From contig JAVKFY010000053.1 of the NCBI GenBank assembly GCA_040223615.1, forward strand, positions 395 to 64,394: a stretch of DNA of 64,000 nt, given 5' to 3'. Source of the DNA: Alphaproteobacteria bacterium (GTDB lineage Bacteria > Pseudomonadota > Alphaproteobacteria > GCA-2731375). The notes beneath the pieces are model-generated. The model was given only the letters and a program-made list of their open reading frames with translations. It searched no databases and was not told the origin of the DNA. The position numbers and the translations under genes are program-made. Positions 14,778-48,994 of this stretch are shown piece by piece. The stretch's first letter is position 1. Every line of letters starts with the position of its first letter.

Positions 14778-16673
14778 TCAGGCCGCGCCGCTCTTGGCCG
14801 ACTCATAGCGGAAGTTGCTCTTCACGTAATCGATGATGTGTTGCACGCAGTCGTCCACCGCATCGCGGCTGGTGTCGACCACCAGCTCGGCCTTCTCCGG
14901 CGGCTCGTAGGGCGCCGAGATGCCGGTGAACTCGGCGATCTCGCCGGCCCGGGCCTTCTTGTACAGGCCCTTCGGATCACGGTTCTCGCAGACTTCCAGG
15001 TCGGCCTTGACGTAGATCTCGTGGAACTTGTCGCCGGCCGCGGTTCGCGCCCGGTCGCGGTCCGACCGGTACGGCGAGATGAAGGCGGTGACGACGATCA
15101 TGCCGGACGCGCACATCAGTGCCGCGACCTCGCCGATGCGCCGGATGTTCTCCGCGCGATCTTCCGGACTGAAGCCCAGGTCGGCGCACAGGCCGGAGCG
15201 CACGTTGTCGCCGTCCAGCACGTAGACCTGGTAGCCCATGGCGTAGAGCCGCCGCTCGACCTCGACCGCCAGCGTCGACTTGCCGGCACCGGATAGCCCG
15301 GTAAACCACATCACGCCGCCCATGTGGCCGTTGCGCTGCGCCCGGGCGACGTCGGTGACGTCGTGCTCGACCGCGTAGATGTTGGTCGCGCGCACGGTGA
15401 TCAGTTGACGCTGGTCGGCATAGCCTTCCATCGAGATGATGCCGCCGCCGGCGATGTCGTAGCCATCGACCAGCACGAAACGGCCGAGCCGCTGGTCGTC
15501 GGCGAAGTCGTCCAGCGCGACGATGCGATCCGCCCGCATGGTGACCTCGGCGACCGCGTTGCGCGGCACCTCGGTACCGCTGGCATTGAGCGACAGGTCG
15601 TCGGTGTCGACCACCTGGTCGATCGACTGCACCCGCACCGGCACCACCGCCGTCGCCAGCTTCATCTTGAAGCGGTCGCCGACCTTCAGCGGTCGCTTGC
15701 CGAGCCAGAACACACGGCCGCGAAACACGTCGGTCTCCACTGGCGGCTCGACCTCCAGCGAACAGATCTCGCCGCGCTCGACGAAGAGTTGCTCGTCCAA
15801 CGTGATACCGACGCTCTCGCCGGCCGATGCCTCGGTCGGCTGCTCGCCGACGCTCCAGGCCTCGATCGAGGCGACCCGCGCGGTCTTGTTCGACGGCGAG
15901 AACAGCACCCGGTCGCCGACCTTGAGCCGCCCGCTCTCGATCCGGCCGGCGATGATCCGGCGCTGGTCGAACTTGTAGACCGCCTGAACCGGCATGCGCA
16001 GCGGCTGCTCGGTGGGCTGGGTCACGACCTGGAACTCGTCCAGCGCCTCAAGCACCGTCGGGCCGCGATACCAGTCCATGGCCGACGAACGGTCGGCGAC
16101 GTTGGCGCCCTCGCGGGCCGAGATCGGAATGAAGAACACCGGATGCACGCCGAGCCCGGCGAGGTATGCGGTGTACTCGCGCTCGATCTCCGCGAAACGC
16201 TCCTGGCTGTAGCCGACCAGGTCCATCTTGTTGACCACCACCGCGACCTGCCGCACGCCCAGCAGGTGCAGCAGGTAGCCGTGCCGGCGCGACTGTTCGC
16301 GCACGCCTTCCTCGGCGTCGATCAGCAGCAGCGCGGCGTCCGACGCGGCCGCGCCGGTGACCATGTTCTTGAGGAATTCCTTGTGCCCCGGCGCATCGAT
16401 GATCACGTATTCGCGCTTCTCGGTGCGGAACCAGATCTGCGACGTGTCGATGGTGATGCCCTGGTCGCGCTCGGCCTGCAGCGCGTCCATCAGGAAAGCG
16501 TACTCGAACGGCATGCCGCGCCGCTCGCACATCGCCTTGATCGACTCGTACTTGCCGTCGGGCAGCGAGCCGGTGTCGTGGAACAGCCGTCCGACCAGGG
16601 TCGACTTGCCGTGGTCGACGTGGCCGACGATGACGATCTTCATGTTCTCGCGGGTCTGGGTCATGGCCGCCAT
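14778..16673 (-). CDS. cysNC: Bifunctional sulfate adenylyltransferase subunit 1 / adenylylsulfate (APS) kinase (NodQ-like CysN-CysC fusion)
   Basis: GTPase G1 motif [15 protein letters not shown] with DAPGH and NKMD. The C-terminal APS-kinase P-loop is [13 protein letters not shown]. Confidence 0.9.
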
Positions 16674-16677
16674 TCCC

Positions 16678-17472
<795 letters not shown>

Positions 17473-17706
17473 CGATAAGCTACCAATCGTCTGTCCGGCG
17501 GACGAACGTCCGCGCGTATGTCCTTGGCCGCGCTGTGTAGGAGTCGCGATGCCAAGCGTCAACCCGCAGTCGAGTGACAACTTGACAACATCAGCCTACC
17601 GAAACGCTAACAGCCCTCCGGTCTTGGTTAAGCAAGCGACGGGCCAATTCATGTTGCAGTGCAGCACAACGCCACATGTATTGAATCGTTCCTGAGTTTC
17701 AACAGC

Positions 17707-33096: not shown

Positions 33097-34152
33097 CTAC
33101 CCAAGGCTTCGCACCAGGTGCGGCCCGACCGCGTTCGCCACCGCCACCGGCAGGCGTTGCCAGGCGGCGATGAACAGGCGGTATTTCGGGTTGTTCGGGT
33201 TGTTGTCCGGTACTTCCCGACCTGGCCGCAGGTTGAACTCATAGCGCAACGGACGCGGCGCGAACCCCCAGTTGACCTTGAAGTCGAACGAGCCGGTGCC
33301 GCGCTTGGACCGGCCGAAGTCGAACCGGGAAAGCCCGCGCTCGGCGGCACGGCCGATCAGCCGCCAGTACATGTAGCTCTGTGCCCCGGTCTCGCGTGCG
33401 GCCGCCATGCCGCCGGCATAGTAGGGCGCGATGGTGTCGCGATGGACGAAACTCATCACCGTCGCCAGTGGCGCGCCGGCGCCGTCCAGCACCGTCAGGA
33501 GCTCGCAGTCGTCGCCGAAGGTCGCCTTCAGGTCCCGGAAATAGCCGCGCGGAAAGGCCGGCGTGCCATGGTCGCGCAGGCTGGTCGAATAGACGTGGAA
33601 GTGACGGTCGAGGTCGTCGTCCAGTATCGCGCCGAGCTTCAGGTCTTTCACTGCCCGGCGGATCACCTGGCGCTGCGCTTCCGGCACGGCCAGAAGGTTC
33701 GCCGCCGGCGAAGCCGATATGTCCTTGGCGAAGGTGACATACAGGTCGTCCTTCACCGCCCAGTCCGGCCGCTGCCGCTCGATCTCGCGGAACTCCACGA
33801 AGTCGGCGCCGAGCCGGTCGCGCAATGCCAGCGCGTGGTCGTCGAGCGCGCGCCGCGCCGGCTCGTCATCGGCCACAGGCCCACCGTAGACGCAAAATGG
33901 CGTTGAGATCAGCCCATTGGCGTTGAACAGCCGGCTCTTCACGTGCGCCAGCGGCAGCACGCCGCAGACCCGCCCGTCGCGCTCGGCATAGGCGTAGTGG
34001 GTCGCCAGCCCGAAGCTGCGCTCGATCAGCCCGGCCCAACCGGCGCGGTGGCAGAAGCTGGCCTGCGGATGCTGGACGACGTAGTCGTCCCAGGCGGCCC
34101 GCGCATGCGCGTCAAGCGCCTTGACCACGACCGGCGCCATCGGTCCGGACAT
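33097..34152 (-). CDS. FemAB-family / CelD-like acyltransferase, PEP-CTERM-system-associated type
   Basis: 351 aa. ...SFCHRAGWAGLIE... and the C-terminal ...MYWRLIGRAAERGLSRFDFGRS... match the Acetyltransf_6/FemAB-like fold found in XrtA loci. Confidence 0.65.
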   Translation of the reverse strand: MSGPMAPVVVKALDAHARAAWDDYVVQHPQASFCHRAGWAGLIERSFGLATHYAYAERDGRVCGVLPLAHVKSRLFNANGLISTPFCVYGGPVADDEPARRALDDHALALRDRLGADFVEFREIERQRPDWAVKDDLYVTFAKDISASPAANLLAVPEAQRQVIRRAVKDLKLGAILDDDLDRHFHVYSTSLRDHGTPAFPRGYFRDLKATFGDDCELLTVLDGAGAPLATVMSFVHRDTIAPYYAGGMAAARETGAQSYMYWRLIGRAAERGLSRFDFGRSKRGTGSFDFKVNWGFAPRPLRYEFNLRPGREVPDNNPNNPKYRLFIAAWQRLPVAVANAVGPHLVRSLG

Positions 34153-34165
34153 CAGCGGCGCGCCG

Positions 34166-34996
34166 TCACTTGCCGTCGATGGCGGCGGCGAAGGCCTGGT
34201 CCATGCGGCCCCAGCGGAAGTCGCGCAGCAGGCGCGTCAGGCGCGGCTGCATCCGCGCCAGGCCGACATAATGGCGAAAGCGGCTCTTGGCGCTGATGCC
34301 GCGCTGCCGCGGCTGGTCGGGGTCGACTTCCCAGGGGTGCATGTAGAACACGCCCGGCTGGCCGTCGACCCGGTTCACCCGGGACAGCAGCGCGCGCGAC
34401 AGCGCATAGGGGAACAAACGGAAATAGCCGCCGCCGCTGCACTGTACGTTGCGTCCGCGCAGGCGCACCGTGGTCATCGGGATCTCGACCAGGCTGTTGC
34501 CGGGCCGCGGCCGATAGGCGAAGCGCGGCGCGTCGGGAATGCCGTAGAAGTCGTGCTTCACCGGATAGATCGACGAGCTGTAGGCGTGGCCTTCCTCGGC
34601 CAGCACGTCGAACGCCCACAGGTTGTGACTGTTGATCGAGAAGGTCGCCGCGCGGTAGCCGCGAACCGGCGCGCCGCCGGTGTCCTCCAGCAGCTTGCGG
34701 GCCTGCCGGATGTCGGCGCGGAACGCGTCCGGCGACTGCGTGTCGACGCGAACGTGCGCCATGCCATGGCTGGCCAGCTCGTGGCCCTCGTCGACGATCC
34801 GCCGGACCAGAGCGGGATAGCGCTCCGCGACCCAGCCCAGGGTGAAGAAGGTCGCCTTCACGCCGGCCTCGTCGAACATGCCGAGCAGCAGGTCGACGTT
34901 GCGCTCGACCCGGCACGGCAGGCTGTCCCAATCGGCCCGGTCGATATTCTGCGAGAAGGCGTGGACCTGAAAATAGTCCTCCACATCGACCGACAT
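34166..34996 (-). CDS. Polysaccharide deacetylase (NodB/CE4), PEP-CTERM-locus subfamily
   Basis: MSVDVEDYFQVHAF... is the CE4 motif-1 (TxDDx-like). HGMAHV follows. The alternative ATG at 35128 would overlap the upstream gene by 35 nt. Confidence 0.8.
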   Translation of the reverse strand: MSVDVEDYFQVHAFSQNIDRADWDSLPCRVERNVDLLLGMFDEAGVKATFFTLGWVAERYPALVRRIVDEGHELASHGMAHVRVDTQSPDAFRADIRQARKLLEDTGGAPVRGYRAATFSINSHNLWAFDVLAEEGHAYSSSIYPVKHDFYGIPDAPRFAYRPRPGNSLVEIPMTTVRLRGRNVQCSGGGYFRLFPYALSRALLSRVNRVDGQPGVFYMHPWEVDPDQPRQRGISAKSRFRHYVGLARMQPRLTRLLRDFRWGRMDQAFAAAIDGK

Positions 34997-35093
34997 CGCG
35001 TTCAGCAGCCGGCCGGCGCCGTCGACACGCGCCGGCGCGCCCGGCGCAGGAGCCGCCCTCGACTCCGCCGGCGCGGTGCGCAGCGTGGCGAGA

Positions 35094-36230
35094 TCAGCGG
35101 ACGTCGGAGTCGTGCTCGTGCTCGTCATCACGGCGTCCTTGTAGGTACTGCACGGCGATGCCGAGCGCCTTCTTGATGATGCGCTCGTGCAGGCCGACAT
35201 AGTCTTCCAGCACGTCGATCCGGCGCAGCACGTCGTCGATCTCGGCGCGGTCGACGCCGCTGCCGCCTGCGCCGCCATTGGCCGCCGCGCCGGACGGCCC
35301 ATTGGCCGGCCCGTTGGTCGGCACCTTGACCGTGATCGGGCCCATCTGCGCTTCACCCGGCCGTGGCCCGCTGGCCACCGTTTCGACCAGGTCATCGACG
35401 CTGTCGTCGAGGATCTGCCGGGTCTCGTGCTCATGCTCCTCGGCGACCTGATGCACGATGGCGCCGTCGATCCGGTGGATCTCTTCCAGGAAGCCGTATA
35501 GCAGCAGGCGCGAGCACAGCGTGTTGATGATGCGCGGCACGCCGCCGGTATGCTCGTAGATCGCGGTGAAGGCGTCGTCGGTGAAACTCGGGTCGTTCTG
35601 CCAGTCGGCGAGCTTCAGCCGGTGCTCGATATAGTCGCGCGTCTCGCGCTCGTTAAGCGGGCCGAGGTGATATGAGGCAATCACCCGCTGGCGCAACTGG
35701 TCCAGATCCTTCGACGCGAGCAGCGCGCGGAACTGCGGCTGGCCGAGCAAGAAGCACTGCAGCGGCGTGCGGCCCTCGATCTGGAAGTTGGACAGCATCC
35801 GCAGCTCTTCCAGCGTCGGGATCGACAGGTTCTGCGCCTCGTCGACCACCAGCAGCGCGTGCTTGCCCTCGTTGTGGTACGCAGTCAGCAGCGTCTCCAG
35901 CCGACGCAGCAGCGACGCCTTGTCGATACCCTCCGCCTCGATGCCGTAGGCCGAGCAGACCATGCGCAACATGTCGTCGGCGTTGAGCTGCGTGGTGACG
36001 ATCTTGGCGGCGACGATCTCGTCCGGGTCCAGCGTTGCCAGCAGGTGCCCGACCATCGTGGTCTTACCCGCGCCGACCTCGCCGGTGATGATGATGAAGC
36101 CTTCGCCCTGGCCGATGCCGTAGGTCAGGTGCGCCAGCGCGCGGCTGTGCACACTGCTGCCAAAGAAGAAGCGCGGATCAGGCGTCAGCTGGAACGGGAG
36201 CGTCGATAGCCTGTAAAAATCCGCATACAT
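35094..36230 (-). CDS. XrtA/EpsI-associated AAA ATPase (GspA/ExeA-like)
   Basis: P-loop ITGEVGAGKTTMV. Walker B is ...LLVVDEAQNL. Acidic C-terminal tail. Confidence 0.75.
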   Translation of the reverse strand: MYADFYRLSTLPFQLTPDPRFFFGSSVHSRALAHLTYGIGQGEGFIIITGEVGAGKTTMVGHLLATLDPDEIVAAKIVTTQLNADDMLRMVCSAYGIEAEGIDKASLLRRLETLLTAYHNEGKHALLVVDEAQNLSIPTLEELRMLSNFQIEGRTPLQCFLLGQPQFRALLASKDLDQLRQRVIASYHLGPLNERETRDYIEHRLKLADWQNDPSFTDDAFTAIYEHTGGVPRIINTLCSRLLLYGFLEEIHRIDGAIVHQVAEEHEHETRQILDDSVDDLVETVASGPRPGEAQMGPITVKVPTNGPANGPSGAAANGGAGGSGVDRAEIDDVLRRIDVLEDYVGLHERIIKKALGIAVQYLQGRRDDEHEHDSDVR

Positions 36231-36239
36231 TATGTTCTA

Positions 36240-37757
36240 CTAAAATGTCTTCCTTACAGTGACAACGACAGAATTCTCGGTCAGCTCGTTGTCGCCGGGC
36301 CCTTCGGTGGTTCGATTCAAGTGCCGAACCGTCAAGCCGGTATTCAACGTATCGCTCAGGCTGTAGTTGAGCGACGTGCTGATCTGGTACCGCCGACTGT
36401 CGGCGGCTGCATTGTCGGCCGTATCGGAGAAAGATCCGTTAACGGACAGGCTCAAATCCGGCCAAAGGCGCCGCGAGAAGCTCCCCGAAACGCCGACTGT
36501 CGACGTATCGCGCGGCGTCGCGCTGCCGTCGGTGTCGCGGCGGCTCAGGAACCACGACAAACTATACGTATTGCGCAGTCGCGAGCCAGACAACCCCATG
36601 CGGAAAATGCGCGAGCGAAAAACCACATCGGTGAAGCTCTGGTCGAAGGCCTCTTCGCCCGGCGTGATCGGCAGGCCGGTGCGGGTATCGATCAGGATGC
36701 CCGTGATCGGATCGGTGGCGACGAACTCGAACGGCTCGGATTCCAGTTCCTGTTGCGTCGTCACCGATTCGCTATAGCTGCCCCTGAGATTCAATGCTGA
36801 CGAGAACCGATAGCTGAACGATCCGTCGTAGCTGACCGATTGGAAGCGCCGGCCGACGCCGAAGCTCAACGTGGTACGCGGCCCCGGCCGCAGGTCGGCG
36901 CCGAAAAGGAAGAAGGCCCCATCGCGGTTGTCGCCGGTCAGCGAGACGTCGCTGAACCCATCGGCGCCGAACCGCACGTAGGGCGTCGCCCAGCGAGTGA
37001 CCGCGTAGCTGACCCGGCCCTGGACGTTGCTTCGCTTGAAGGTGTTGCCCGATGCGGCGTTGTTGCCGCCGCTGTCGCGCCGTGTGCGGGTATGCGAGCC
37101 GCTGAGCGACCAAGCGAACTTGCCGAACCTGTTGCCCGAAGAGATCGTCTCCGACACCCCAAAGGTCGTCGAATCGGATGTCGAGTCGGCCGCCGGGTCG
37201 TCATTCTCGTCCAAAACGTCATACATCGACCGCGAAGCGGTTAGTCGCGTCTGCGAGCGGGCCCAGCGGCCAAAGCCAAATTGCAGGGACGGACTCAGCC
37301 GGACGTTGAACACGTCCGACTGGTTGCTGCCGAGGTCTCGACCGGACCCGGATATCGCACCGTTTCGATTGAGGGTTGATCGGCGATAAGACGATGAAGC
37401 ATCGAGAAACAGGTGGTCCTCGAACAACTCCGCATTGGCTGCGCCGGTGATCTGCGGTGTGTAGCCGCCAAGACCGTCGGTTTCGGCGTAGTGCTCTGCG
37501 CTGACCGATGCGCTCAGATTCAATCTGAGCCGGCCCCCGGTGCCCCGCAGCTGGAAACCCGGCCGCGCGGTGAACACCAGATCCGATTCGGCCCCCGAAT
37601 TTACGCCGCGGACATTGTCGGTGTATTCGACGCTACCCGAGATCGACGGATCCAGGCGCCATGTCGCCGCGGTGCTAGCGCCGCATCCCAACACCGTCGC
37701 CGCCAGCGCCACAATCGCGCCAGATACGAGCCCTCGCCCCCAGAACATGCCTCGCAT
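36240..37757 (-). CDS. Outer-membrane beta-barrel protein, PEP-CTERM-system-associated type
   Basis: Signal peptide. Alternating hydrophobic beta-strand pattern rich in S/T/G/N/Y/F. Locally lower GC than neighbours, judged by eye. Confidence 0.6.
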   Translation of the reverse strand: MRGMFWGRGLVSGAIVALAATVLGCGASTAATWRLDPSISGSVEYTDNVRGVNSGAESDLVFTARPGFQLRGTGGRLRLNLSASVSAEHYAETDGLGGYTPQITGAANAELFEDHLFLDASSSYRRSTLNRNGAISGSGRDLGSNQSDVFNVRLSPSLQFGFGRWARSQTRLTASRSMYDVLDENDDPAADSTSDSTTFGVSETISSGNRFGKFAWSLSGSHTRTRRDSGGNNAASGNTFKRSNVQGRVSYAVTRWATPYVRFGADGFSDVSLTGDNRDGAFFLFGADLRPGPRTTLSFGVGRRFQSVSYDGSFSYRFSSALNLRGSYSESVTTQQELESEPFEFVATDPITGILIDTRTGLPITPGEEAFDQSFTDVVFRSRIFRMGLSGSRLRNTYSLSWFLSRRDTDGSATPRDTSTVGVSGSFSRRLWPDLSLSVNGSFSDTADNAAADSRRYQISTSLNYSLSDTLNTGLTVRHLNRTTEGPGDNELTENSVVVTVRKTF

Positions 37758-37800
37758 CGCCTATCGGTGGTTCCAAGCAGCAGTCTAGGACCAGCCGCTA

Positions 37801-38886
37801 CTAGTACCCGTAGGCATAGGAGCCGAACTGATCCCCCGCACTGTCCGATGTCGCCTTGTTTAACACAAGTGAGATGTTGGGGCACGCACTTAACATGGAA
37901 AGTGAGGTTTCCACGTTCTTCTGTGCGGTCTCCTCCGCCTCCACGACGAACACGATCTGGCCAACATGCATGGCCAGCACCGAGGCCTCAGACGCGGCGA
38001 GCACCGGCGGCGTGTCGATCACGATGATGCGGTCGGCGTAGCGCCGCGCCATCTCGGTTACCACGTGGTCCATCCGCTGGCTGGCGAACAGCTCGGTCGG
38101 GTTTGGCCGCGGCTGTCCGGCCGGCAGCAGCGTCAGGTTCGGCACGTTGGTACGCAGCAGCACGTCGGCCAGGTCGCGCTTCTGGTCGGCCAGGACGTCG
38201 AGCAGGCCCGGACGCGGCATCGGCACGCCGAGCACCGACATCGCCGAATGGCCGGCCTCGGCGCGGTGCATGTCGGCGTCGACCAGCAGAACGTTGAGGT
38301 CGCGCTCGCTGGCGATGCTCATCGCCAGGTTCACCGCGGTGAAGGTCTTGCCTTCGCGCGGTTGGCTGGAGGTGACCATGATCAGGTTGCCGTTGCGCAG
38401 CCGGTCGCTGCCCGTGGCCAGCGCCTTCAGCAACAGCGGCCGCTTGATGATCCGGTATTCCTCCAGGATGCGCGAACGCTCGCCGGCTGGCGTGACCATG
38501 CCGGCCAGCTGCATCTTGACCAGTTCCAGATCGACGTAGTTCTCCGCGTCCCGGTCTTCCGGTTCCGGCGAGCGCGCCACCGGGGCCGCCGGGCGCGGCG
38601 CCGGCTCGGCAGCGGCTTGCGGTGCCGGCTGCCGCGGCGCTGGGGCCGCCTTGGCTTCGGCCGGCTTCGGTGACGCCGGTGCGGCGGCCTCCGGCGCCGG
38701 CTTCGGCTGTACCGGAGCCGGTCGCGGCGCAGGCGGGTTGGCCGTGGCCGCCCCGTTCTGCGCGAACCGCTTGGCCGCTTTTTCGATCAGGCTGCCGCCT
38801 TCCGCGCGGTTCATGCGCTCGGCCGCTTTCTGAATCAGATCCGGAGTATCTTTGGTACTCATGGCTTCGACCGCATTGGTTGTCAT
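37801..38886 (-). CDS. Chain-length-determinant tyrosine autokinase (BY-kinase, exosortase-locus type)
   Basis: Walker A MVTSSQPREGKTFTAVNLA, Walker A' VLLVDADMH and Walker B IIVIDTPP. The N-terminal region is Ala/Pro-rich. The ATG at 38886 forms an ATGA overlap with the upstream stop. Confidence 0.75.
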   Translation of the reverse strand: MTTNAVEAMSTKDTPDLIQKAAERMNRAEGGSLIEKAAKRFAQNGAATANPPAPRPAPVQPKPAPEAAAPASPKPAEAKAAPAPRQPAPQAAAEPAPRPAAPVARSPEPEDRDAENYVDLELVKMQLAGMVTPAGERSRILEEYRIIKRPLLLKALATGSDRLRNGNLIMVTSSQPREGKTFTAVNLAMSIASERDLNVLLVDADMHRAEAGHSAMSVLGVPMPRPGLLDVLADQKRDLADVLLRTNVPNLTLLPAGQPRPNPTELFASQRMDHVVTEMARRYADRIIVIDTPPVLAASEASVLAMHVGQIVFVVEAEETAQKNVETSLSMLSACPNISLVLNKATSDSAGDQFGSYAYGY

Positions 38887-40508
38887 AGCAAGTTCTCGAA
38901 TTGAGCAATGATACTGGCCACGTTCACGCGCGGTTCCAGCAGGACAAGTGCCCCATAGATCGCCACCAGGACGGCGCAAACCGAGGCGAATCCGCCGATC
39001 TCGGCCAGCCGTAGCCGGGATCGGCCACTTTGGACGATTTTCGACACCGCCCCCAGAACTGGCAATCCGAACGACTGACGCAGGTTATTGGTTGCGACGA
39101 ACGACGTATCGAGCTGCATCAACAGGAAGATGAAACCGCCACCGACGCCAAGGCCGGCCGCCAGCACCATCGACAGCATCAGGGGCCGGTTCGGCGCCGT
39201 CGGCAGGGTCGGCAGCTTCGGCGGATCGACGATGCGGAACTGGATATCGGTCTCCGCGTCCACCGCCTGGGCGATCTTCGCCGACTCGCGCCGCGACAGC
39301 AGTTGCTCGTAGTTGCGCTTGATGATCGAGTAGTCGCGGTTCAGGTTGGACATCGCGGCTTCGATCTGCGGCGCCTGCGCCGCCATCGATTCCAGCTCGA
39401 CCAGCTGTTCCTTGATCTTGCCGACCCGGCGCTCGGACTTCGCGACATTCGACTCGGCGTCGACAAGGCGCAACTTGACGTGCTCGTAGAGGGCGTTCGG
39501 GATGCGCTGCTTGCCGCCACCCGTCGTGGTGCTGCCACCGCCGCCACCGCTGGTGCCTTCCGCCGCGACCCGTTCTTTCTCGCTCTCCAGCTGTACCTGC
39601 AACGCCTCCAGCGTGCGCCGCGAGGCGATCACGTCGGGATGCTGATCGGTGTATTTCAGCAGCATCGAGTCCAGGTTGCTCTGCAGGTTGCCGATGCGGC
39701 TCTGCAGGCTGGAGATCGCCGGATCGATCTGTCGCGAATTGTTGTTCAGCACGACCTGGGGTGCCACGTCGACTTCGAGATACTGCGGCACGGTCTCAAG
39801 CTGCGTGCGCAGCTGGTCGCGTGTCAGGATCGCCTCTTCCATCAGCGAGCGGGCATCGCGCAGTTCGCGCTGCATGTCTTCGGCCTTGGCGACGTAGCTG
39901 CCTTCGCGCGACAGCAGCTTGCCATTCTCCGCCCGGAAATCGGCGAGACGCTTTTCCGCCTCCTGCAGTTGGCGCTCGTAGTCCAGCACCTGGCCTTCCA
40001 GGAAAGCGCGCGCCGACTCCATCTCCTGCCGGTTCTCGCCGACATTGTTCTCCACGAAGATGGTCAGCAACGACTGCACCACGCGCTGCGCCACTTTCGG
40101 ATCGGTATGGCTGTAGCTGATCGTGAACAGGTTCGGGCCGGATGCCTTGACATTGATCCCTGCCAGCGTGCTGGCGATCAGCCGATCCATCTCGCGTTCC
40201 GACGCGATGCCGAGGTCGAGATCCGCCATCCGGATGACCTGCGCCACGTTCGGCCCGCTGAGCAGGGTCTGATTGATCACCCGAACCTGGTCGCGGATGT
40301 TCGGGTTGACCGCAATGCCCTTCAGCAATGGCGTCAGCAGCGTCTCGGTATCGACGTAGATGCGGGTCGACGCGTCGTATTTGTCCGGCATTGCCGCGAC
40401 GGCGAACCAGCCGCCCAAGCAGACCAGCCACGCCATTGCGATCCCAAGCCAGCGGCGGCGCCATAACCCGCGCAGCCACACAGAAATCAAGGATTTTGTG
40501 TCTTCCAT
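38883..40508 (-). CDS. Polysaccharide chain-length determinant protein (Wzz/PCP, exosortase-locus type)
   Basis: An N-terminal TM segment, a long periplasmic coiled-coil with a Gly-rich insert (GGGGGSTTTGGG), and a C-terminal TM segment. Confidence 0.75.
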   Translation of the reverse strand: MEDTKSLISVWLRGLWRRRWLGIAMAWLVCLGGWFAVAAMPDKYDASTRIYVDTETLLTPLLKGIAVNPNIRDQVRVINQTLLSGPNVAQVIRMADLDLGIASEREMDRLIASTLAGINVKASGPNLFTISYSHTDPKVAQRVVQSLLTIFVENNVGENRQEMESARAFLEGQVLDYERQLQEAEKRLADFRAENGKLLSREGSYVAKAEDMQRELRDARSLMEEAILTRDQLRTQLETVPQYLEVDVAPQVVLNNNSRQIDPAISSLQSRIGNLQSNLDSMLLKYTDQHPDVIASRRTLEALQVQLESEKERVAAEGTSGGGGGSTTTGGGKQRIPNALYEHVKLRLVDAESNVAKSERRVGKIKEQLVELESMAAQAPQIEAAMSNLNRDYSIIKRNYEQLLSRRESAKIAQAVDAETDIQFRIVDPPKLPTLPTAPNRPLMLSMVLAAGLGVGGGFIFLLMQLDTSFVATNNLRQSFGLPVLGAVSKIVQSGRSRLRLAEIGGFASVCAVLVAIYGALVLLEPRVNVASIIAQFENLL

Positions 40509-40656
40509 CGGACGATCCCGGGTCAATGCCCTTTAGCTAGGTCGCGGCTCAGCCGCGACGGCCCTCGACACGGTCCCTGGCGGAACCGCTCGCGACCCAT
40601 TACGGCACAACTTTCACCGACGCCGCGGTCGCGACGGGAGTTCTGCAAGAAGCGTG

Positions 40657-41277
40657 CTAGAACCAGCTTTGCGGGATGATCAACACGTCGCCGGGCAGCA
40701 TTTCCACGTTTGCCGCCACATCGCCGTCCTTCACCAGGTCGTCGAGACGCACCCGATAGCTCTTCTCGCTGCCATCAACCTGCCGCACGATCACCGCGTC
40801 GTTGCCGGCGGCGAATTCGGTAAGCCCGCCGACCGCGATCATCACGTCGAGAATCGACATGTTTTCCCGATATGGGATGCCCTGCGGCCGTGCCGCCTCG
40901 CCGACCACGCGAATTTGCTGGTCGAACGGACCCTGGAAGCCCGTCACCAGAACGCTGACGATCGGATCCTGGATGAACTTGGCCAGTTCCACTTCCAGGT
41001 CGCGCGCCAATTCGGTCGGCGTCTTGCCGGCGACCGGGACGTCGTCGATCAGCGGCACCGTCAGGCGGCCGTCGGGCCGCACCGGCAACGTCACCGACAG
41101 TTCCGGGTTGCGCCAGACGAAAATGTTCAGATTGTCGCCGGGGCCAATTCGATAGGCCGGGGTCGGAAAGTCGCCGGCGTCGGCCGGTGCCAGATCACGC
41201 TGCGCGCAGCCGGCCAAGACCAGCATGCCGATCGCCGCAATGCCCACCAGCAGTCCGTGGAGTCGCTTCGCCATCAC
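40657..41277 (-). CDS. Polysaccharide export outer-membrane lipoprotein (Wza-like, exosortase-locus type)
   Basis: Lipobox LVLAGC. YRIGPGDNLNIFVW is the Poly_export PES motif. Length 206 aa. Confidence 0.8.
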   Translation of the reverse strand: MMAKRLHGLLVGIAAIGMLVLAGCAQRDLAPADAGDFPTPAYRIGPGDNLNIFVWRNPELSVTLPVRPDGRLTVPLIDDVPVAGKTPTELARDLEVELAKFIQDPIVSVLVTGFQGPFDQQIRVVGEAARPQGIPYRENMSILDVMIAVGGLTEFAAGNDAVIVRQVDGSEKSYRVRLDDLVKDGDVAANVEMLPGDVLIIPQSWF

Positions 41278-41376
41278 CGGATTCCTATCGCCCGTCGGAT
41301 GTCGTATTCATCTGCTCTACTCATTATCAGTGCCCGTGAGTCAAATCAACCATGCACCCCAGAGCTTAACCCGGTC
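41278..41376 (-). promoter_or_regulatory. AT-rich putative promoter/leader for the xrtA-locus operon (export gene first)
   Basis: A ~100-nt comparatively AT-rich tract lies upstream of the first gene of a long co-directional gene string (40657 down to 29452). Confidence 0.3.
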
Positions 41377-42492
41377 CTAATCGATCATGCCTTTACTTGG
41401 CGACAAACTGCCGCGCAGGTGGTCGGAAAGCGGGCGGCGCAGCTCGATCCAGTTCAGCCGGCCGCTTGGCCTGGCCCCGAGATCGGTCTTGTAGCGCTGC
41501 GCTCCAGCCATGAAATCATAGTGCTGCCGGCCCGCCTTGGCGTGCGCCTCGATGCACAGGTGATGGCTCACCAGGCCAGGGCGGGCACGGTTGTCATCGA
41601 AGTATCGCAGGCCGCTTTGATAGAAATAGACCCGGTCGCCATAAATAAAGTTGTAAAGATACCCGATGTCTTCGTCGCCGGCCGCGACCCGGACCAGTTC
41701 AACATGACCCTTGTCGAAATTCTCTTCGATCAGCCGACGATGAAAGGTCTCGAAGAAGGGTTCGGCGAACGCGCCGGCGCGGCCGCGTCGGCGCCACGAG
41801 GCCTGGTGCAGCACCTTCAGCCGGGCCATGTAGGCCAGCGCCTCGTCGACGCTCCCCGCCACCGTCAACGCCGGCGGGCGAGCGTAGAAGCGCAGCGAGC
41901 GCCGGATGTGCTGGCGCACGTTGCGGCTCAACATCGCCAGGTGCCGGTTCGGCGCGTCGAGGTCGGTCAGCGCCAGGCTGAAAACCTCTTTCGAGTCGCG
42001 TTCATATACCCGCCAGCCGAGCGACCGGGCCAGGTCGGCATAGACCGACGGCACCCCGCCCAGCAGGAACCGGTCCAGCCACGGCCGCGCCCGCGCCTGC
42101 AGAAAGCTCAACGTCGCTCGGCGGATCGCATCGTCATGGCCATGCATGGCCAGCACGCCATTATATTCGATGTAGACGCGGTCATAGCGCTCGTCGCCGA
42201 GTTCGCTCAGTGCCAGCCGGCGCTGCCACGGCAGTGCCACCGGCCCCTCGAACCAGGCCGCGAGACCGACCAGCCGCTCGCCGTCGCGCACCGACATCAC
42301 CTGCGGCGTGCGTCCGGTGGCGCGCGCCAGGCAGCCGATCCAGCTCCACGACTGGAAGAACGAATGCGGACAGTCGCGCTGCAACGTCCGCCACGCCGCA
42401 CCCAACGCCTCCAGGTCCGGCTGCGGCGCCAGGTGCGCCGTCAGTCGTCCGATCGCGGCGCCGGCCTGCGGCTCGGCTGACCCGGAATGCAT
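41377..42492 (-). CDS. CelD/FemAB-like GNAT acyltransferase (Acetyltransf_6 family)
   Basis: ...PHSFFQSWSWIGCL... N-terminus and ...IGYLYNFIYGDRVYFYQSG... core match the CelD-like family. Length 371 aa. Confidence 0.65.
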   Translation of the reverse strand: MHSGSAEPQAGAAIGRLTAHLAPQPDLEALGAAWRTLQRDCPHSFFQSWSWIGCLARATGRTPQVMSVRDGERLVGLAAWFEGPVALPWQRRLALSELGDERYDRVYIEYNGVLAMHGHDDAIRRATLSFLQARARPWLDRFLLGGVPSVYADLARSLGWRVYERDSKEVFSLALTDLDAPNRHLAMLSRNVRQHIRRSLRFYARPPALTVAGSVDEALAYMARLKVLHQASWRRRGRAGAFAEPFFETFHRRLIEENFDKGHVELVRVAAGDEDIGYLYNFIYGDRVYFYQSGLRYFDDNRARPGLVSHHLCIEAHAKAGRQHYDFMAGAQRYKTDLGARPSGRLNWIELRRPLSDHLRGSLSPSKGMID

Positions 42493-43584
42493 GTCGCCGC
42501 GTACCCGTCGCTAGATGCGCTGCCGGCCGGCTTCCAGGCCCTGCTGGAGGCAAGCGGCGCCAGGGACTTTCAGAATGGCCGCGCCTGGTACGCGAATTTC
42601 ATGGCGACTTGCCTCGATCCGGGCGACCGACCGGTTCTGGTTGCGGTGACGGGCGATGACGGTGCTCCCCTTGTTCTTTTGCCGTTGCGCCATTTGGGAC
42701 ACAAGCAGCATGCCAGCATCGGGCGGGAGTTGGCGAGCCTCGCCAACTTCTACACCTGCACGTTCCGCCCGGCCATGGCGCCGATGCCGCCGGCCGAACA
42801 GGCCCGCGCCGTGGCCGCCGCGTTGACCGGTGTCCGCGACCGGTTCGACGTGGTGGACCTGAATACGCTGCCGGCCGACGAACCGCTGTATCAGGCGCTG
42901 CCGACGGCGCTGGCGGACGCAGGCATGTGGCACCAGGCCTATGAACATTTCGGTAACTGGTACGAAGCCATGCCGGCGGAGCCTGACGCCTACCTGGCGG
43001 CGCGGCCGTCGAGCCTGCGCAACACCGTGACCCGCAAGGGCCGGCGCCTGGCGCGCGATGGCAATGCCCGATTCGAGATTGCCCGCGACCGGGCGGCGCT
43101 TGCACCGGCGCTCGCCGCCTATCAGCGGATCTACGCCGCGAGCTGGAAGGAGCCGGAGCCCTACCCCGACTTCACCGCCGGGCTGGCGCACGCCGCCGCC
43201 GATGCCGGCGCGCTGCGGCTTGGCCTGTGCTGGATCGACGACCAGCCGGCCGCCGCCCAGCTCTGGCTGACCCAGGACGGCCGCGCGACGATCTTCAAGC
43301 TGGCCTACGACGAGCGTTTCAAGGCGGCCTCGGCCGGCTCGCTGCTGACCTGGCACATGGTGCGGGCAGCGATTGTCGACGACGGCGTCACCGAGATCGA
43401 CTACGGCCGCGGCGACCACGCCTACAAGCGCGACTGGCTCGACCAGCGCCGCGCCCGCGGCGGCCTGCTGGTGTTCAACCCTTCGACCCCGGCCGGCTGG
43501 CTATCGGCCGCGCGCCACCTCGGCGGCGTCTGGCTGCGTCGCCGGCTGCGCGGCGCCCGGGCCGACACCCCGGCCAACGATTGA
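42487..43584 (+). CDS. CelD/FemAB-like GNAT acyltransferase (Acetyltransf_6 family), divergent paralog
   Basis: ...AAAQLWLTQDGRATIFKLAYDERFKAASAGSLLTWHMVRAAI... is a CelD-like core. Its start codon is back-to-back with that of the neighbouring gene (ATGCAT). Confidence 0.65.
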   Translation: MHVAAYPSLDALPAGFQALLEASGARDFQNGRAWYANFMATCLDPGDRPVLVAVTGDDGAPLVLLPLRHLGHKQHASIGRELASLANFYTCTFRPAMAPMPPAEQARAVAAALTGVRDRFDVVDLNTLPADEPLYQALPTALADAGMWHQAYEHFGNWYEAMPAEPDAYLAARPSSLRNTVTRKGRRLARDGNARFEIARDRAALAPALAAYQRIYAASWKEPEPYPDFTAGLAHAAADAGALRLGLCWIDDQPAAAQLWLTQDGRATIFKLAYDERFKAASAGSLLTWHMVRAAIVDDGVTEIDYGRGDHAYKRDWLDQRRARGGLLVFNPSTPAGWLSAARHLGGVWLRRRLRGARADTPAND

Positions 43585-44469: not shown

Positions 44470-46419
44470 TCAGAGGTTCTCGATCTCGACCGGGTCGATG
44501 TCGCCGGCCGGCTCGAAACCGAAGATCCGGCCGTAGAAGAACAACTCGCCTTCCAGCGCGCGCTTGATGTTCTCCGCGCGGCGGAAGCCATGGCCCTCGC
44601 CCTCGAACGGCACGTAGGCCACCGGCAGGCCCTTGGCGCGCAACGCCGCCACCATTGCCTCGGCCTGGTTCGGCGGCACCACCTTGTCGTCCAGCCCCTG
44701 GAAAAAGATCACCGGACAGTTGAGCTGGTCGGTGAAGTGGATCGGCGAGCGCTCGCGATAGACCGGCTCGGCCGCCGGCAGCGGTCCGACCAGGCGGTCG
44801 AGATAGCGGCTTTCGAACTTGTGCGTGTCGCGCGCCAGCGCCATCAGGTCGCCGATGCCGTAGTGGCTGGCGCCGGCCTGGAACACGTCGTGGAAGGTCA
44901 GCGCCGCCAGCGTGGTGAAGCCGCCGGCGCTGCCGCCGCGGATCGCCAGGCGGTCGGCGTCGACCAGGTCGGCCTCCACCAGGTGGCGCGCGGCGGCGAT
45001 GCAGTCGAGCACGTCGACCACGCCCCACCGGTTGTCAAGTCGCTGGCGATAGGCGCGCCCGAAACCGGTTGAGCCGCCATAGTTCACGTCGACCACGGCG
45101 AAGCCCCGGCTGGTCCAGTACTGGATCGCCAGCGACAGACCGGAGCCGGCCGCCGCGGTCGGCCCGCCATGGCTGCGCACGATCAGCGGCGGCAGCTCGC
45201 CGACCGGCGCCCGGTAGTCGCGGTTCGCCGGTGCGTAGAAAAAGGCATGCGCGGTGCGGCCGTCCTCGGTCGGAAACTCGACCGGCATCGCCACCGAGAT
45301 GTAGTCGGGATCGATCAACGTTTCCGACGCGGCGCGCACCACGTCGATCTCGCGCCCGTCCATCGCCAGCAACGCCAGCCGCGACTGTCGCCGCGTGGTG
45401 GCGCCGATCAGCGCCCAGCCGTCCTCGTAGCGATACGGCACGCTGGCCTCCGCGAAGCCGGACTCGAATGGCACCAGCGTGCCGTCGACCACCAGTTGCA
45501 GGCTCGGCAGCCCGTCGCGCACCATCGTCGCCACCAGCCGGTTCGGCGCCAGCACGCGATAGCTGCGCATGCCGAGCTGCCAGAGCGGAAAGCCGAACTC
45601 GGCCTCGGTCGGGCACACCGGCTCTACCCGGCCGTCGCGCCAGCAGTAGAGATTCGACCAGCCGGACCGGTCGGAGATGAAAAACAGGCTGCCGTCGCTG
45701 GCCCACTCCGGCTGCAGCACCGACTCGGCTGCGCCGCCGGCGATCCGGTGCGCAGTGCCGATAACGCCGTCCTCGTCCACCTCGGCAAGCCAAAGCTCGC
45801 TGCCGTCCCACGGCATGTTGGGGTGGTCCCAGGTGATCCAGGCCAGGTGGCGGCCGTCCGGCGACAGCGTCGGGTAGGCGAAGAAGTCGTGGCCCTCGGC
45901 GATCACCGCGCCGTCCTGGTCGCTGCCGTCCAGTGCCAGCGCGACCAACGCATTGCTCGGCTCGCCCGCTCTGCGATGGTCCTCGCGGATCGCATAGACG
46001 CGGCCGCGCGGCAGATCGAAATCGAGATCGGCGAAGCGCAACGCCGCCGCGACGGTCAGCGGCCGGACTGCCTTTCCGGGCTCTATCAGATGGACTCGTT
46101 GATCGGCGAAGTCGACATAGCAGACCCTGCCATCGGCGGCGGCCGCATAGGCACCGCCGCCATATTCGTGCACCCGGCTGCGCACGTTCGCCGGCGCTGG
46201 CGTCAGCTCGACGATGTCGCCGCCGGCCGGGCGGCACATCAGGGTCGTGCGCCCGCCCTCTGTCGGCCGCGATTCCAGCCAGTAGAGCTGCTCGCCGAGC
46301 ACGGTCAGCCCGCCCAGCCCGATCGTGCCGGCGACGATCAGGTCGCTGGTGATCGGCGAGGCCCAGGTGCCGAACCGCGCCTCGCTCGCGTCCGGTCGCG
46401 CGGAGGTGTCGTTATTCAA
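44470..46419 (-). CDS. S9-family serine peptidase (prolyl oligopeptidase/acylaminoacyl-peptidase-like) with N-terminal beta-propeller
   Basis: C-terminal ...RLAIRGGSAGGFTTLAAL... (GxSxGG) and ...FFQGLDDKVVP...GEGHGF (Asp/His of the triad). Confidence 0.8.
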   Translation of the reverse strand: MNNDTSARPDASEARFGTWASPITSDLIVAGTIGLGGLTVLGEQLYWLESRPTEGGRTTLMCRPAGGDIVELTPAPANVRSRVHEYGGGAYAAAADGRVCYVDFADQRVHLIEPGKAVRPLTVAAALRFADLDFDLPRGRVYAIREDHRRAGEPSNALVALALDGSDQDGAVIAEGHDFFAYPTLSPDGRHLAWITWDHPNMPWDGSELWLAEVDEDGVIGTAHRIAGGAAESVLQPEWASDGSLFFISDRSGWSNLYCWRDGRVEPVCPTEAEFGFPLWQLGMRSYRVLAPNRLVATMVRDGLPSLQLVVDGTLVPFESGFAEASVPYRYEDGWALIGATTRRQSRLALLAMDGREIDVVRAASETLIDPDYISVAMPVEFPTEDGRTAHAFFYAPANRDYRAPVGELPPLIVRSHGGPTAAAGSGLSLAIQYWTSRGFAVVDVNYGGSTGFGRAYRQRLDNRWGVVDVLDCIAAARHLVEADLVDADRLAIRGGSAGGFTTLAALTFHDVFQAGASHYGIGDLMALARDTHKFESRYLDRLVGPLPAAEPVYRERSPIHFTDQLNCPVIFFQGLDDKVVPPNQAEAMVAALRAKGLPVAYVPFEGEGHGFRRAENIKRALEGELFFYGRIFGFEPAGDIDPVEIENL

Positions 46420-46497: not shown

Positions 46498-47715
46498 CTA
46501 ACCACCGGCCTGTGACAACCGATGGTACTGCGCCAGCGGCACCAGCAGCCGCCCGGCGAACAGCCGCATCGCCTTGTCCGAACTCTCCATCAACGGCGCG
46601 CGCAACGCCATCAGCACCTGGCCGGCGCTGGTCTCGCCCCAGAACCAGTCGGCCACCTGGCGCGCCGAGGCGCGCTGCTGGCCCGGCCGTGCGGTCGCCG
46701 CCTCCATGTAGAAGGCTTTCAGGTCGGTGCAGGCGAAGCGCAGTTCGTCCGCCGATGGCGCGCCCTCCGGTTCGCGCAACACTTCGGCCAACAGCCGCGC
46801 GCAATCCGCCGGCGCCCTGCCGCTCAGCCGCGCGGTCGAGCGCTGCCGGTCGCGTTGCGCCACCGCGTGCCACGGCAGCAATCGCTCGATCTCGGCCAGC
46901 AGCGCGGCTTCGGTGGCATCGCCCGGCGGCGTCGGCGGCGGCAGCGGGATCGGGCAGGCCCAGCCCTCGGCCGGCGCCGCGTCCGGCGCTTGATCGGGAA
47001 AATCCTCCAGAACCGGTCCCGACGGCGCCGCCAGCAGCGCCAGCGCGGCGCGGAGCACCCGGGTCTGGAACGCGGCGTCGTCCGGCGTGCCCAGCGGCCG
47101 GCCCAGATCGAATGGCACCCACAGCGCGCGCGGCGGCCGGATTTCCACCGAATGCTCGCGCACCAGGCTGACCTGCGTCGTTGCCAGTCCCTCGTCCTCG
47201 AATACGTGTGCCAGCCCGCCCACGGCGCGCGTGCAAAACGGTCAGACGGGGACCAGGAACACCGTGTTCACGCCATCGGCGCGCATCAGGCCGGCAAGCT
47301 CGCGCGCCGCCGGCGCCATCGCCTGCGGCGGCGTCGAGCCCATGAAGGCGTAGTGGTGGTTCGCCACCCCGGCAATCTCGCCCGCCGCCGCCAGTTCCTT
47401 CAGCCGGTCGAGCGGGAACACCACGTTCAGGTCCTGCTCGAAGCCGGTGCGGTCGAAGTTGGTGGAGATGTGGCTCATCACCAGGTCGCCCGGCGCATCG
47501 TCGGCGGCGATCACCCGATAGCCGGCCTCGCCGACGGCGAATGGCGGATCGTCGCGCCGCTGCAGCGCCGCCGTCGACACGATGGCGATGCGCGCCTCGC
47601 TCAGCGGCGGCGCTGTCGTCCACGGCGTCGTCGTGTAACCGGCGCAGTCCAGGTGCCGCAGATGGTCTGCGGCCTCCGGCGCCATGTCGGCAAGTCGGAC
47701 CATGTCGCGTCTCAT
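46498..47715 (-). CDS. Candidate selenoprotein, glycine/sarcosine/betaine/D-proline reductase selenoprotein-B (GrdB/PrdB) family, with in-frame TGA (Sec) at 47242-47244
   Basis: ORFs 47242..47715 and 46498..47223 are in the same frame. They are separated only by TGA plus 6 sense codons, and the track's GTG 'start' of the second ORF is in frame. The read-through product is ...VNTVFLVPV-U-PFCTRAVGGLAH..., a UxxC motif. The upstream part (VMSHISTNFDRTGFEQDLNVVFPLDRLKELAAAGEIAGVANHHYAFMG) resembles the PrdB/GrdB core as I recall it. A SECIS hairpin was not folded. Confidence 0.5.
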
Positions 47716-47752: not shown

Positions 47753-48994
47753 GTGAACCTGTCACCGATTGGCCCTACACTGCGACGCCATGATCCCCCA
47801 GATGCTTGGTGCAGAGCGTCCGTGAAGCGTCCACCGTTGTTGTTGCTGGTGCTGGTGTCGACCGTGGCGCCGGTGTCGATGAACATGTTCCTGCCGTCGA
47901 TGCCGGGCATGGTCCGCGCGCTCGACACCGAGCTGCATTCGGTGCAGCTCGCGCTCAGCCTGTTCATTGCTGGCCTGGCCGTCGGCCAGCTGATCTACGG
48001 CCCGCTCTCCGACCGCTTCGGTCGCCGGCCCACCCTGCTCGCCGGGCTGGCGCTTTTCGTCGCCGCCAGCGCGTGTTCGGCGCTGGCGCCGACCATCGAC
48101 CTGCTGATCGTCGCGCGCGTGGCCCAGGCGATGGGCGGCTGCGCCGGCATGGTGCTGACCCGCGCCATCGTGCGCGACGTGTTCCCGCGCGACCGGGCCG
48201 CCGCCGCGCTCGGGTACGTCACCATGGGCATGGCGGTCGGGCCGATGCTGGCGCCGTCGATCGGCGGCCAGCTCGACCTGTGGTTCGGCTGGCGCGGCGG
48301 CTTCGTCTTCGTCACCGTCTTCGGCGCCCTGCTCCTGCTGGCCTCATGGCCATGGCTGCACGAGACCAACCCGGGCCGCAACCGGGCGCCGCTGCTGATG
48401 TCGCTGGTCGGCGGCTATCGGCGCCTGCTCGGCTCGCGGGTGTTCCTGGCCAACCTGTGCGCCTTCGCCTTCACCAGCGGCTGCTTCTTCATCTTCGCCA
48501 GCGCCGCGCCCTATCTGGTGGTCGAGACCCTGGGCGGCAGCCCGCGCGACTACGGCCTGTTCTTCATCTGCCTGCCGACCGGCTACATGACCGGCTCGTT
48601 CATCGTCGCCCGGCTGGCCACCCGGTTCGGCAGCGAGCGCATGCTGCTGTTCGGGCTGGCGATCACGGTCAGCGGCGTGGCGTTGCTGGCCGCGGTCAAC
48701 GTGAGCCTGCCGCTCAGCCTGCCGGTGCTGTTCGGGCCGATGCTGCTGGTCACCATGGGCAACGGCATCACCATGCCGAACGCGATTGCCGGTGGCGTCT
48801 CGGTGGCGCCGGAACTGGCCGGCACCGCCTCGGGCCTGATCGGCTTCTGCCAGATGGCCCTGGCCGGATTGCTCACCTTGCTGGTCGGCGCGCTACACGA
48901 CGGCACGCCGTGGCCGCTGGTCGGCCTGATGGCGGCGGTGGTCTCGGTTGCCATCGTCGCCGGCGCCGTGGTGTGGAAATCGCGCGCGACCTAG
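47753..48994 (+). CDS. MFS transporter, Bcr/CflA drug-resistance subfamily
   Basis: 12-TM pattern. MFS motif LSDRFGRRPTLL. Bcr-like N-terminus. Confidence 0.8.
   Translation: MNLSPIGPTLRRHDPPDAWCRASVKRPPLLLLVLVSTVAPVSMNMFLPSMPGMVRALDTELHSVQLALSLFIAGLAVGQLIYGPLSDRFGRRPTLLAGLALFVAASACSALAPTIDLLIVARVAQAMGGCAGMVLTRAIVRDVFPRDRAAAALGYVTMGMAVGPMLAPSIGGQLDLWFGWRGGFVFVTVFGALLLLASWPWLHETNPGRNRAPLLMSLVGGYRRLLGSRVFLANLCAFAFTSGCFFIFASAAPYLVVETLGGSPRDYGLFFICLPTGYMTGSFIVARLATRFGSERMLLFGLAITVSGVALLAAVNVSLPLSLPVLFGPMLLVTMGNGITMPNAIAGGVSVAPELAGTASGLIGFCQMALAGLLTLLVGALHDGTPWPLVGLMAAVVSVAIVAGAVVWKSRAT

Follow-up and report, generated by a model that had tools for sequence, protein, structure and literature searches.

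In the proline and glycine reductases, the amine substrate is activated by a pyruvoyl subunit. The selenoprotein subunit of the D-proline reductase, PrdB, works by a selenolate attack that leads to a selenenyl-sulfide, which is then reduced by a dithiol, and the motif of GrdB is UxxCxxC, where U stands for selenocysteine (Sec) (PMC13188914). The PrdB name has also been applied to selenoproteins of the open ocean. The Sargasso Sea selenoproteome included 42 "proline reductase PrdB" selenoproteins (Zhang, Fomenko & Gladyshev 2005, PMC1088965), and the Global Ocean Sampling (GOS) study ranked the family among the most abundant, with 235 Sec and 110 Cys forms (Zhang & Gladyshev 2008, PMC2398784). 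The non-Stickland species Anaeromyxobacter and Geobacter have also been credited with a "proline reductase" (PMC1794560), and later reviews retain the PrdB label. Here we describe a gene of this family, found in a 64,000-nucleotide stretch of DNA (the window) from an alphaproteobacterial metagenome-assembled genome (MAG; contig JAVKFY010000053.1). The gene lies on the minus strand, is interrupted by an in-frame TGA codon and most probably encodes a single selenoprotein.

The supplement to PMC1088965 contains the sequence NTVFLVPVuPFCTRAVSVLAHFFE…DLQAFYTE…WFWEKTKAG…, which agrees with the window protein in its motif and in its long C-terminal part. The marine "proline reductase PrdB" selenoproteins of 2005 and 2008 are the same family (UxxC, PF07355), with no structural difference from the window gene. 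The family has therefore been catalogued as a selenoprotein since 2005, and the window gene is a further, mis-annotated member from an alphaproteobacterial MAG. Both marine studies count the family as PrdB and are silent on the absence of PrdA, on the additional domain and on the association with sel genes. The same supplement also holds a shorter "PrdB" subtype (AACY01424071, …LLVPSuGLCNQTVGLVQRE…), with about 120 aa after the Sec and without the long C-terminal domain; thus, the PrdB label covers at least two distinct orphan groups. With the PrdB of Clostridium sticklandii and Clostridioides difficile, the window protein shares a homologous alpha/beta domain of about 195 residues, with the Sec of a UxxC motif at the equivalent place. 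Its homology to GrdB, GrdF and GrdH (PF07355, TIGR01917/TIGR01918) is confined to the C-terminal half of those proteins (model positions ~221-419 of 431-435).

The original prediction had joined two open reading frames (ORFs), 47242..47715 and 46498..47223, into one gene. Translation confirmed that they occupy the same frame, with only the TGA and six sense codons, CCG TTT TGC ACG CGC GCC (PFCTRA), between them. The TGA at 47244-47242 is the sole interruption of the minus-strand frame from 47715 to 46498. The read-through product reads ...NTVFLVPV-U-PFCTRAVGGLAHVFEDEGL..., with the local context FLVPV-U-PFC-TRAVGGLAH. The GTG at which the second ORF was called is in frame, as had been stated, and encodes the conserved Val of TRAVGG. 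The extent of the gene had to be amended at one end: the frame was as claimed, whereas the start is placed at 47703 (MVRLADM...), where the NCBI gene model and the homologues begin, and not at 47715. The N-terminal fragments of the homologues are all 153 aa long and start with MVRL, and Met5 is kept in at least 90% of 80 genes; use of the in-frame ATG farther upstream, at 47715, would add four residues. The scan for promoters and terminators around the gene found none.

Composition is that of coding DNA on both sides of the TGA, with a GC content at third codon positions (GC3) of 0.90 and 0.88 and at second positions (GC2) of 0.50 and 0.56, in a 68% GC genome. When all six frames of the window were searched for TGA codons that lie between two stretches of coding signal, the scan returned this site and, besides it, only a single ordinary gene boundary. 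NCBI stores the gene as two entries, P0121 ([quoted passage not shown]) and P0001 ("hypothetical protein RIM84_18460"). Searches against 5.8 billion proteins gave 812 matches for the full query, nearly all of them ~245-aa fragments beginning at the artefactual start MGGLAH, and 1519 matches for the N-terminal query, of which nearly all among the matches listed were 153 aa long with the same end. Judged from frame and composition, the two annotated genes are one gene split by annotation.

We have then examined the site in relatives. The homologue scan used one genome per GTDB species and found a homologue in at least 595 species, of which the best 80 loci served for the codon and residue counts. 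In every one of the 80 species loci the homologous codon was TGA, and it stood in the context PV-U-PxC-T(R)AV. Its carriers were mainly Alphaproteobacteria, together with Desulfobacterota, Myxococcota, Binatia and Dehalococcoidia. The U-x-x-C motif announced for the read-through product was thereby borne out (Table 1), and the aligned position is indeed occupied by either Sec or Cys: rare continuous Cys forms exist, namely P0002 (CLLC), P0003 (CPAC) and P0256, and three contigs (L001, L002 and L003) carry a Cys allele with TGC at the site. The Cys form at L001:6001-7110 and the Sec form at L016:8100-9210 are 99.8% identical over 1110 nt and differ at two nucleotides only, TGC CTC versus TGA CCC, that is, in the Sec codon and the next one. 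This pair looks like a very recent natural switch between Sec and Cys, to judge from the alignment.

Two of the MAG contigs, L013 (labelled Nitrosopumilus sp.) and L016 (labelled Enterobacteriaceae), bear labels that are implausible for a gene family with alphaproteobacterial close relatives; binning contamination is the likely cause. One further homologue, P0004 (368 aa), comes from a JGI contig of 19,886 bp. Around the Sec site it is about 35 residues short (…HYSFMG-CTRAVCALAH…), and this gap is either a real Sec-removing deletion or a gene-model artefact.

The part of the gene downstream of the TGA showed no sign of frame decay. Relative to the closest relative, L004 (92% identical), the ratio of nonsynonymous to synonymous substitution rates (dN/dS) was 0.09 upstream and 0.18 downstream of the TGA, and many motifs of the downstream part, with many invariant residues, are kept in at least 90% of the 80 genes. 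Among the six codons that separate the TGA from the GTG are those for the invariant Cys161 and a conserved TRA. Of the normal stop codons of the window, TGA is the most frequent (24 of 44 predicted genes); genome-wide reassignment of TGA is thus ruled out, and read-through must be site-specific. The conserved TGA, the coding signal and the purifying selection on both halves together support the original proposal of a genuine selenoprotein gene split by ORF callers, and recoding of the UGA at 47244-47242 to Sec is strongly supported by this comparative evidence.

The Val codon directly 5' of the UGA (window 47245-47247) is GTC in 63 of 75 genes, with an entropy of 0.83 bit versus ~1.5. This bias suggests a constraint on the nucleotide context just 5' of the recoded codon.

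Bacterial selenocysteine insertion sequences (SECIS), in the model of Zhang and Gladyshev, are stem-loops that follow directly on the UGA and have, at a distance of about 16-37 nt from it, an apical loop that contains G. In the window, a GC-rich hairpin obtained by minimum free energy (MFE) folding begins 6-11 nt after the UGA, with arms UGC / CGCGCC - GUG - GGCG(G/C)G / GCA. Its apical loop, GUG at 47223-47221, lies 18 nt past the UGA and is the same GTG that gene finders take as a start. Pairing and covariation were evaluated on 76 distinct sequences. The stem was paired in 81.2% of cells, versus 28-61% when one arm was slid, and the Cys form of L001 retains the hairpin intact. At the fourfold-degenerate third positions of conserved amino acids (78 sites), codons 162-164 (Thr-Arg-Ala) had entropies of 0.67, 0.29 and 0.61 bit, whereas the rest of the gene has 1.2-1.9 bit. 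No other site of the 78 is as low, and the three coincide exactly with the 5' arm of the stem, indicating that codons 162-164 are constrained as RNA in addition to their constraint as protein. We regard the hairpin as a candidate SECIS, supported by position, conservation and synonymous constraint but not proven by covariation.

The genes around the homologues bear on Sec decoding as well. We have compared the neighbours of 76 related loci within a reach of 8 kb and identified them by neighbour clustering and NCBIfam. Genes of the Sec machinery adjoin the gene repeatedly: SelD in 13 of the 76 loci (523 bits), SelB in 10 (462 bits) and SelA in 8 (567 bits). A tRNA-Sec was located by ARAGORN near the gene in 13 of the 60 loci scanned, and about 16 of the 76 loci have tRNA-Sec and/or selD, selA or selB within 8 kb. 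In four loci (L006, L010, L017 and L029) selD immediately precedes the gene on its own strand, and SelD (AIRS/AIRS_C) is the most frequent Pfam family among 143 immediate neighbours.

Table 1. Features of the selenoprotein gene, its product and the flanking genes (nucleotide positions refer to the window, residue ranges to the read-through protein).
Feature	Position	Strand	Details
Complete selenoprotein gene	46498..47703	-	401 aa including Sec, ~43 kDa; stop TAG 46500-46498
TGA, read as selenocysteine (strongly supported)	47242..47244	-	residue 158 counted from 47715, 154 counted from 47703
U-P-F-C redox motif (Sec158, Cys161)	47233..47244	-	both residues invariant in 80 genes
GTG called as start of the "hypothetical protein"	47221..47223	-	actually Val165 of TRAVGG; also apical loop of the hairpin
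Candidate bacterial SECIS hairpin, UGC-ACGCGCGCC-GUG-GGCGGGCU-GCA	47209..47235	-	MFE fold; core stem 47230-47214
PrdB/GrdB-like alpha/beta domain, spans the Sec codon	47032..47613	-	residues 35-228
Family-specific C-terminal helical domain	46501..47010	-	residues 236-405; motifs GWxCP, DLKAxYxEA..AQPG, DWFWxET
Cys254 of GWACP, third conserved redox-capable residue	46954..46956	-	Cys in 78/80 genes
Pfam GRDB PF07355	residues 80-155		29.9 bits, cut-off 22
NCBIfam D-proline reductase PrdB TIGR04483	residues 35-228, across the TGA		85.2 bits, E 4.7e-24, cut-off 300
GrdH NF040795	residues 39-228		51.7 bits, E 6.3e-14, cut-off 775
GrdF NF040794	residues 79-225		40.5 bits, E 1.3e-10, cut-off 800
TIGR01918	residues 38-222		35.4 bits, cut-off 65.45; model positions 221-409 only
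S9 peptidase	44470-46419	-	downstream of the selenoprotein gene, same strand
Divergent MFS transporter	47753-48994	+	flanks the selenoprotein gene
Acyl-CoA synthetase and GST			further upstream of the selenoprotein gene

The family claim of the original prediction stood in part. The read-through protein, with Cys put in for Sec, was the query for the Pfam and NCBIfam profile scans (Table 1). Its GRDB match is above the cut-off and its PrdB and GrdB scores are below theirs; it is therefore a member of the superfamily that fails the curated thresholds of PrdB and of GrdB proper, and its architecture is also different. Homology exists on both sides of the TGA, as the TIGR04483 match runs across the site, and the Cys homologue P0002 scores 35 bits against Pfam GRDB. 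Compared with PrdB, whose model has 238 positions, the window protein has 401 aa, with an extra 170-residue helical C-terminal domain and a conserved Cys, and there is no prdA (pyruvoyl proprotein) or prdC-F operon nearby. Its carriers, unlike the hosts of PrdB, are not amino-acid fermenters. Compared with GrdB, a protein of ~430 aa made of two halves, the window protein is without the N-terminal ~220 residues, and its motif U-P-F-C-T-R-A is UxxC only and not UxxCxxC, the residue at +6 being Ala; no grdA, grdE, grdC or grdD is found nearby.

Residues 236-405 had no Pfam match. Searched alone against 1.84 billion representatives, the C-terminal domain retrieved 577 clusters; 149 of the best 150 matches listed are consistent with the single architecture described here, and the exception is a repetitive protein of 4350 residues that looks spurious. 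In the AlphaFold model of P0002, which is 52% identical (predicted local distance difference test, pLDDT, 87.7; predicted template modeling score, pTM, 0.85), the Sec-equivalent Cys121 is placed in the alpha/beta domain where a beta-strand gives way to a long helix, at the N-terminus of that helix. The C-terminal domain is modelled as all-helical with high confidence, and GWACP falls in the loop that links the two domains, where the model is less confident.

No Grd or Prd component was present among the neighbours in the window, as the original prediction had noted. The same held for the 76 loci, with PrdA, GrdE, GrdA and PrdC absent from the recurrent neighbour clusters and from the most frequent Pfam families of the 143 immediate neighbours. 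A recurring set of ECH, QOR and acyl-CoA ligase genes was considered as a partner and rejected; since it comes from a few closely related genomes only, it is regarded as lineage synteny and not as functional linkage. Some loci hold tandem paralogues, each with its own TGA (L014:4959+6192, L018:8460+9689, L028:8460+9689 and L044:8460+9691), the second copy having a different, longer hairpin (GCGCGCGGUCGGUGCGGCCGCGC), and two MAGs have copies at separate loci (L012+L079 and L064+L080). An ORF of about 515 aa lies upstream of the tandem pairs. Five of the 143 immediate neighbours match Pfam Pyr_redox_2, and the ~515-aa ORFs are probably among them; if so, they would be a possible electron donor.

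Elsewhere in the window, the sole SelB-like match (15858-16637) proved to be CysNC and not SelB. The region 14778-17580, on the minus strand, encodes a CysNC fusion (GTP_EFTU + APS_kinase, 649 aa) and then CysD (PAPS_reduct, 300 aa), which together form a pair for sulfate activation. At 33097-43584 lies a cluster for the biosynthesis and export of polysaccharide, with genes for a Wzz/GNVR chain-length determinant, Poly_export/SLBB, three Acetyltransf_6 (FemAB-like GNAT) proteins, an AAA_22 ATPase and a ParA-like ATPase.

The locus could be explained in other ways. If a nonsense mutation or a sequencing error had created the TGA, a former Cys-containing GrdB-family gene would have been broken and its downstream part left untranslated. 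The output of the annotation pipelines, a truncated 153-aa "GrdB family protein" and a separate "hypothetical protein," would fit such a pseudogene, as would the lack of Sec machinery in the window. However, the TGA is common to all 80 independent species genomes, and the 247 downstream codons keep their coding composition, a low dN/dS and dozens of invariant residues. A pseudogene has next to no probability on these grounds and is effectively refuted by conservation. We also find it highly improbable that translation stops at the TGA and restarts at the GTG at 47223, giving 17-kDa and 26-kDa subunits that assemble. Gene finders do call both ORFs across hundreds of metagenomes, and most homologues have an in-frame GTG or ATG at the Val165 codon, but the six codons that would then remain untranslated encode the invariant Cys and the conserved Thr-Arg-Ala. 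Moreover, the Cys forms P0002, P0003 and P0256 are single continuous proteins, the PrdB profile match is continuous through the site, and in the modelled fold the strand that precedes the site forms one unit with the helix that follows. Because residue 165 is Val in the continuous forms, the "GTG start" is simply a Val codon.

A different question is whether the product is a bona fide subunit of D-proline reductase (PrdB) or of a glycine/betaine reductase (subunit B), with the genes for its pyruvoyl partner PrdA/GrdE and for the electron-transfer proteins at other sites of the genome. The best profile match is the PrdB equivalog TIGR04483, JGI labels homologues "D-proline reductase (dithiol) PrdB," and the literature files the family under PrdB. 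Nevertheless, we consider this very unlikely: the scores are far from the equivalog cut-offs (85 bits vs 300 for TIGR04483 and 35 vs 65 for TIGR01918), a private 170-aa domain is added to what the PrdB profile covers, none of PrdA, GrdE, GrdA and PrdC recurs beside the gene, and the carriers are mostly Alphaproteobacteria of oxic marine and soil settings, not Stickland fermenters. The explanation that we strongly favor is that of one split gene for a ~43-kDa selenoprotein of the GrdB/PrdB superfamily. As no pyruvoyl subunit (PrdA/GrdE) accompanies the gene, the product is most likely a self-contained reductase and not a D-proline reductase.

Several results weigh against this explanation or parts of it. 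The 64-kb window contained no tRNA-Sec in a tRNA scan and no selA, selB or selD in tblastn searches with SelA, SelB and SelD, so that the case for Sec decoding by the source genome is drawn from its relatives only. Covariation of the hairpin gave no signal (81.2% paired vs 81.0% in shuffles), the stem being conserved and not covarying; its fold energy was not better than that of dinucleotide shuffles (z = 0.35, in a sequence of 68% GC), and Rfam returned no match at gathering thresholds. The 143 immediate neighbours fall into 116 Pfam families, with no conserved operon partner or electron donor among them. A sequence search of the PDB gave spurious repeat-protein matches only, and Foldseek of the P0002 model retrieved nothing significant, only generic Rossmann-like or B12-binding-like alpha/beta folds (best E 0.013, template modeling score ≤0.27); no solved structure resembles the model. 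The catalytic cycle and the substrate class are therefore proposed by analogy only.

The proposed mechanism draws on PrdB/GrdB chemistry (PMC13188914) and on the strand-U-x-x-C-helix geometry. During translation, SelB-GTP-Sec-tRNA(Sec) would bind the hairpin 3' of the UGA. In the mature protein, the selenolate of Sec158 may attack an electrophilic atom of a small substrate, either in the reductive cleavage of a C-X bond or on an oxidised sulfur or selenium centre. Cys161 would then resolve the adduct to a selenenyl-sulfide, and a dithiol donor (the thioredoxin or the glutathione system) would regenerate the enzyme, with Cys254 as a candidate relay. A bolder version, to which we give an outside chance, holds that the protein is a single-subunit Sec reductase mislabelled "proline reductase," in which the C-terminal helical domain and the GWxCP Cys replace the pyruvoyl subunit. 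The placement near sel genes could then reflect the handling of selenium or sulfur compounds, for example the supply or recycling of reduced selenium, and not amino-acid fermentation.

For the source genome, the truncated "GrdB family protein" and the "hypothetical protein" should be merged into one selenoprotein, and the presence of the gene predicts that the source organism decodes Sec. Hundreds of database clusters appear to be split in this way, with nearly all listed members stored as 153-aa and ~245-aa pieces. To the earlier catalogues our analysis adds, descriptively, the failure at the PrdB/GrdB equivalog thresholds, the private C-terminal domain with a third Cys, the lack of a conserved partner and the frequent sel linkage. 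A widespread family, found in at least 595 species genomes and among the top-ranked of ocean selenoproteomes, thus keeps a PrdB name that neither architecture nor gene context supports. If the proposal of a self-contained reductase concerned with selenium or sulfur compounds were true, a selenoprotein that ranks among the most abundant in bacteria of the oxic ocean would have a function assigned to it.

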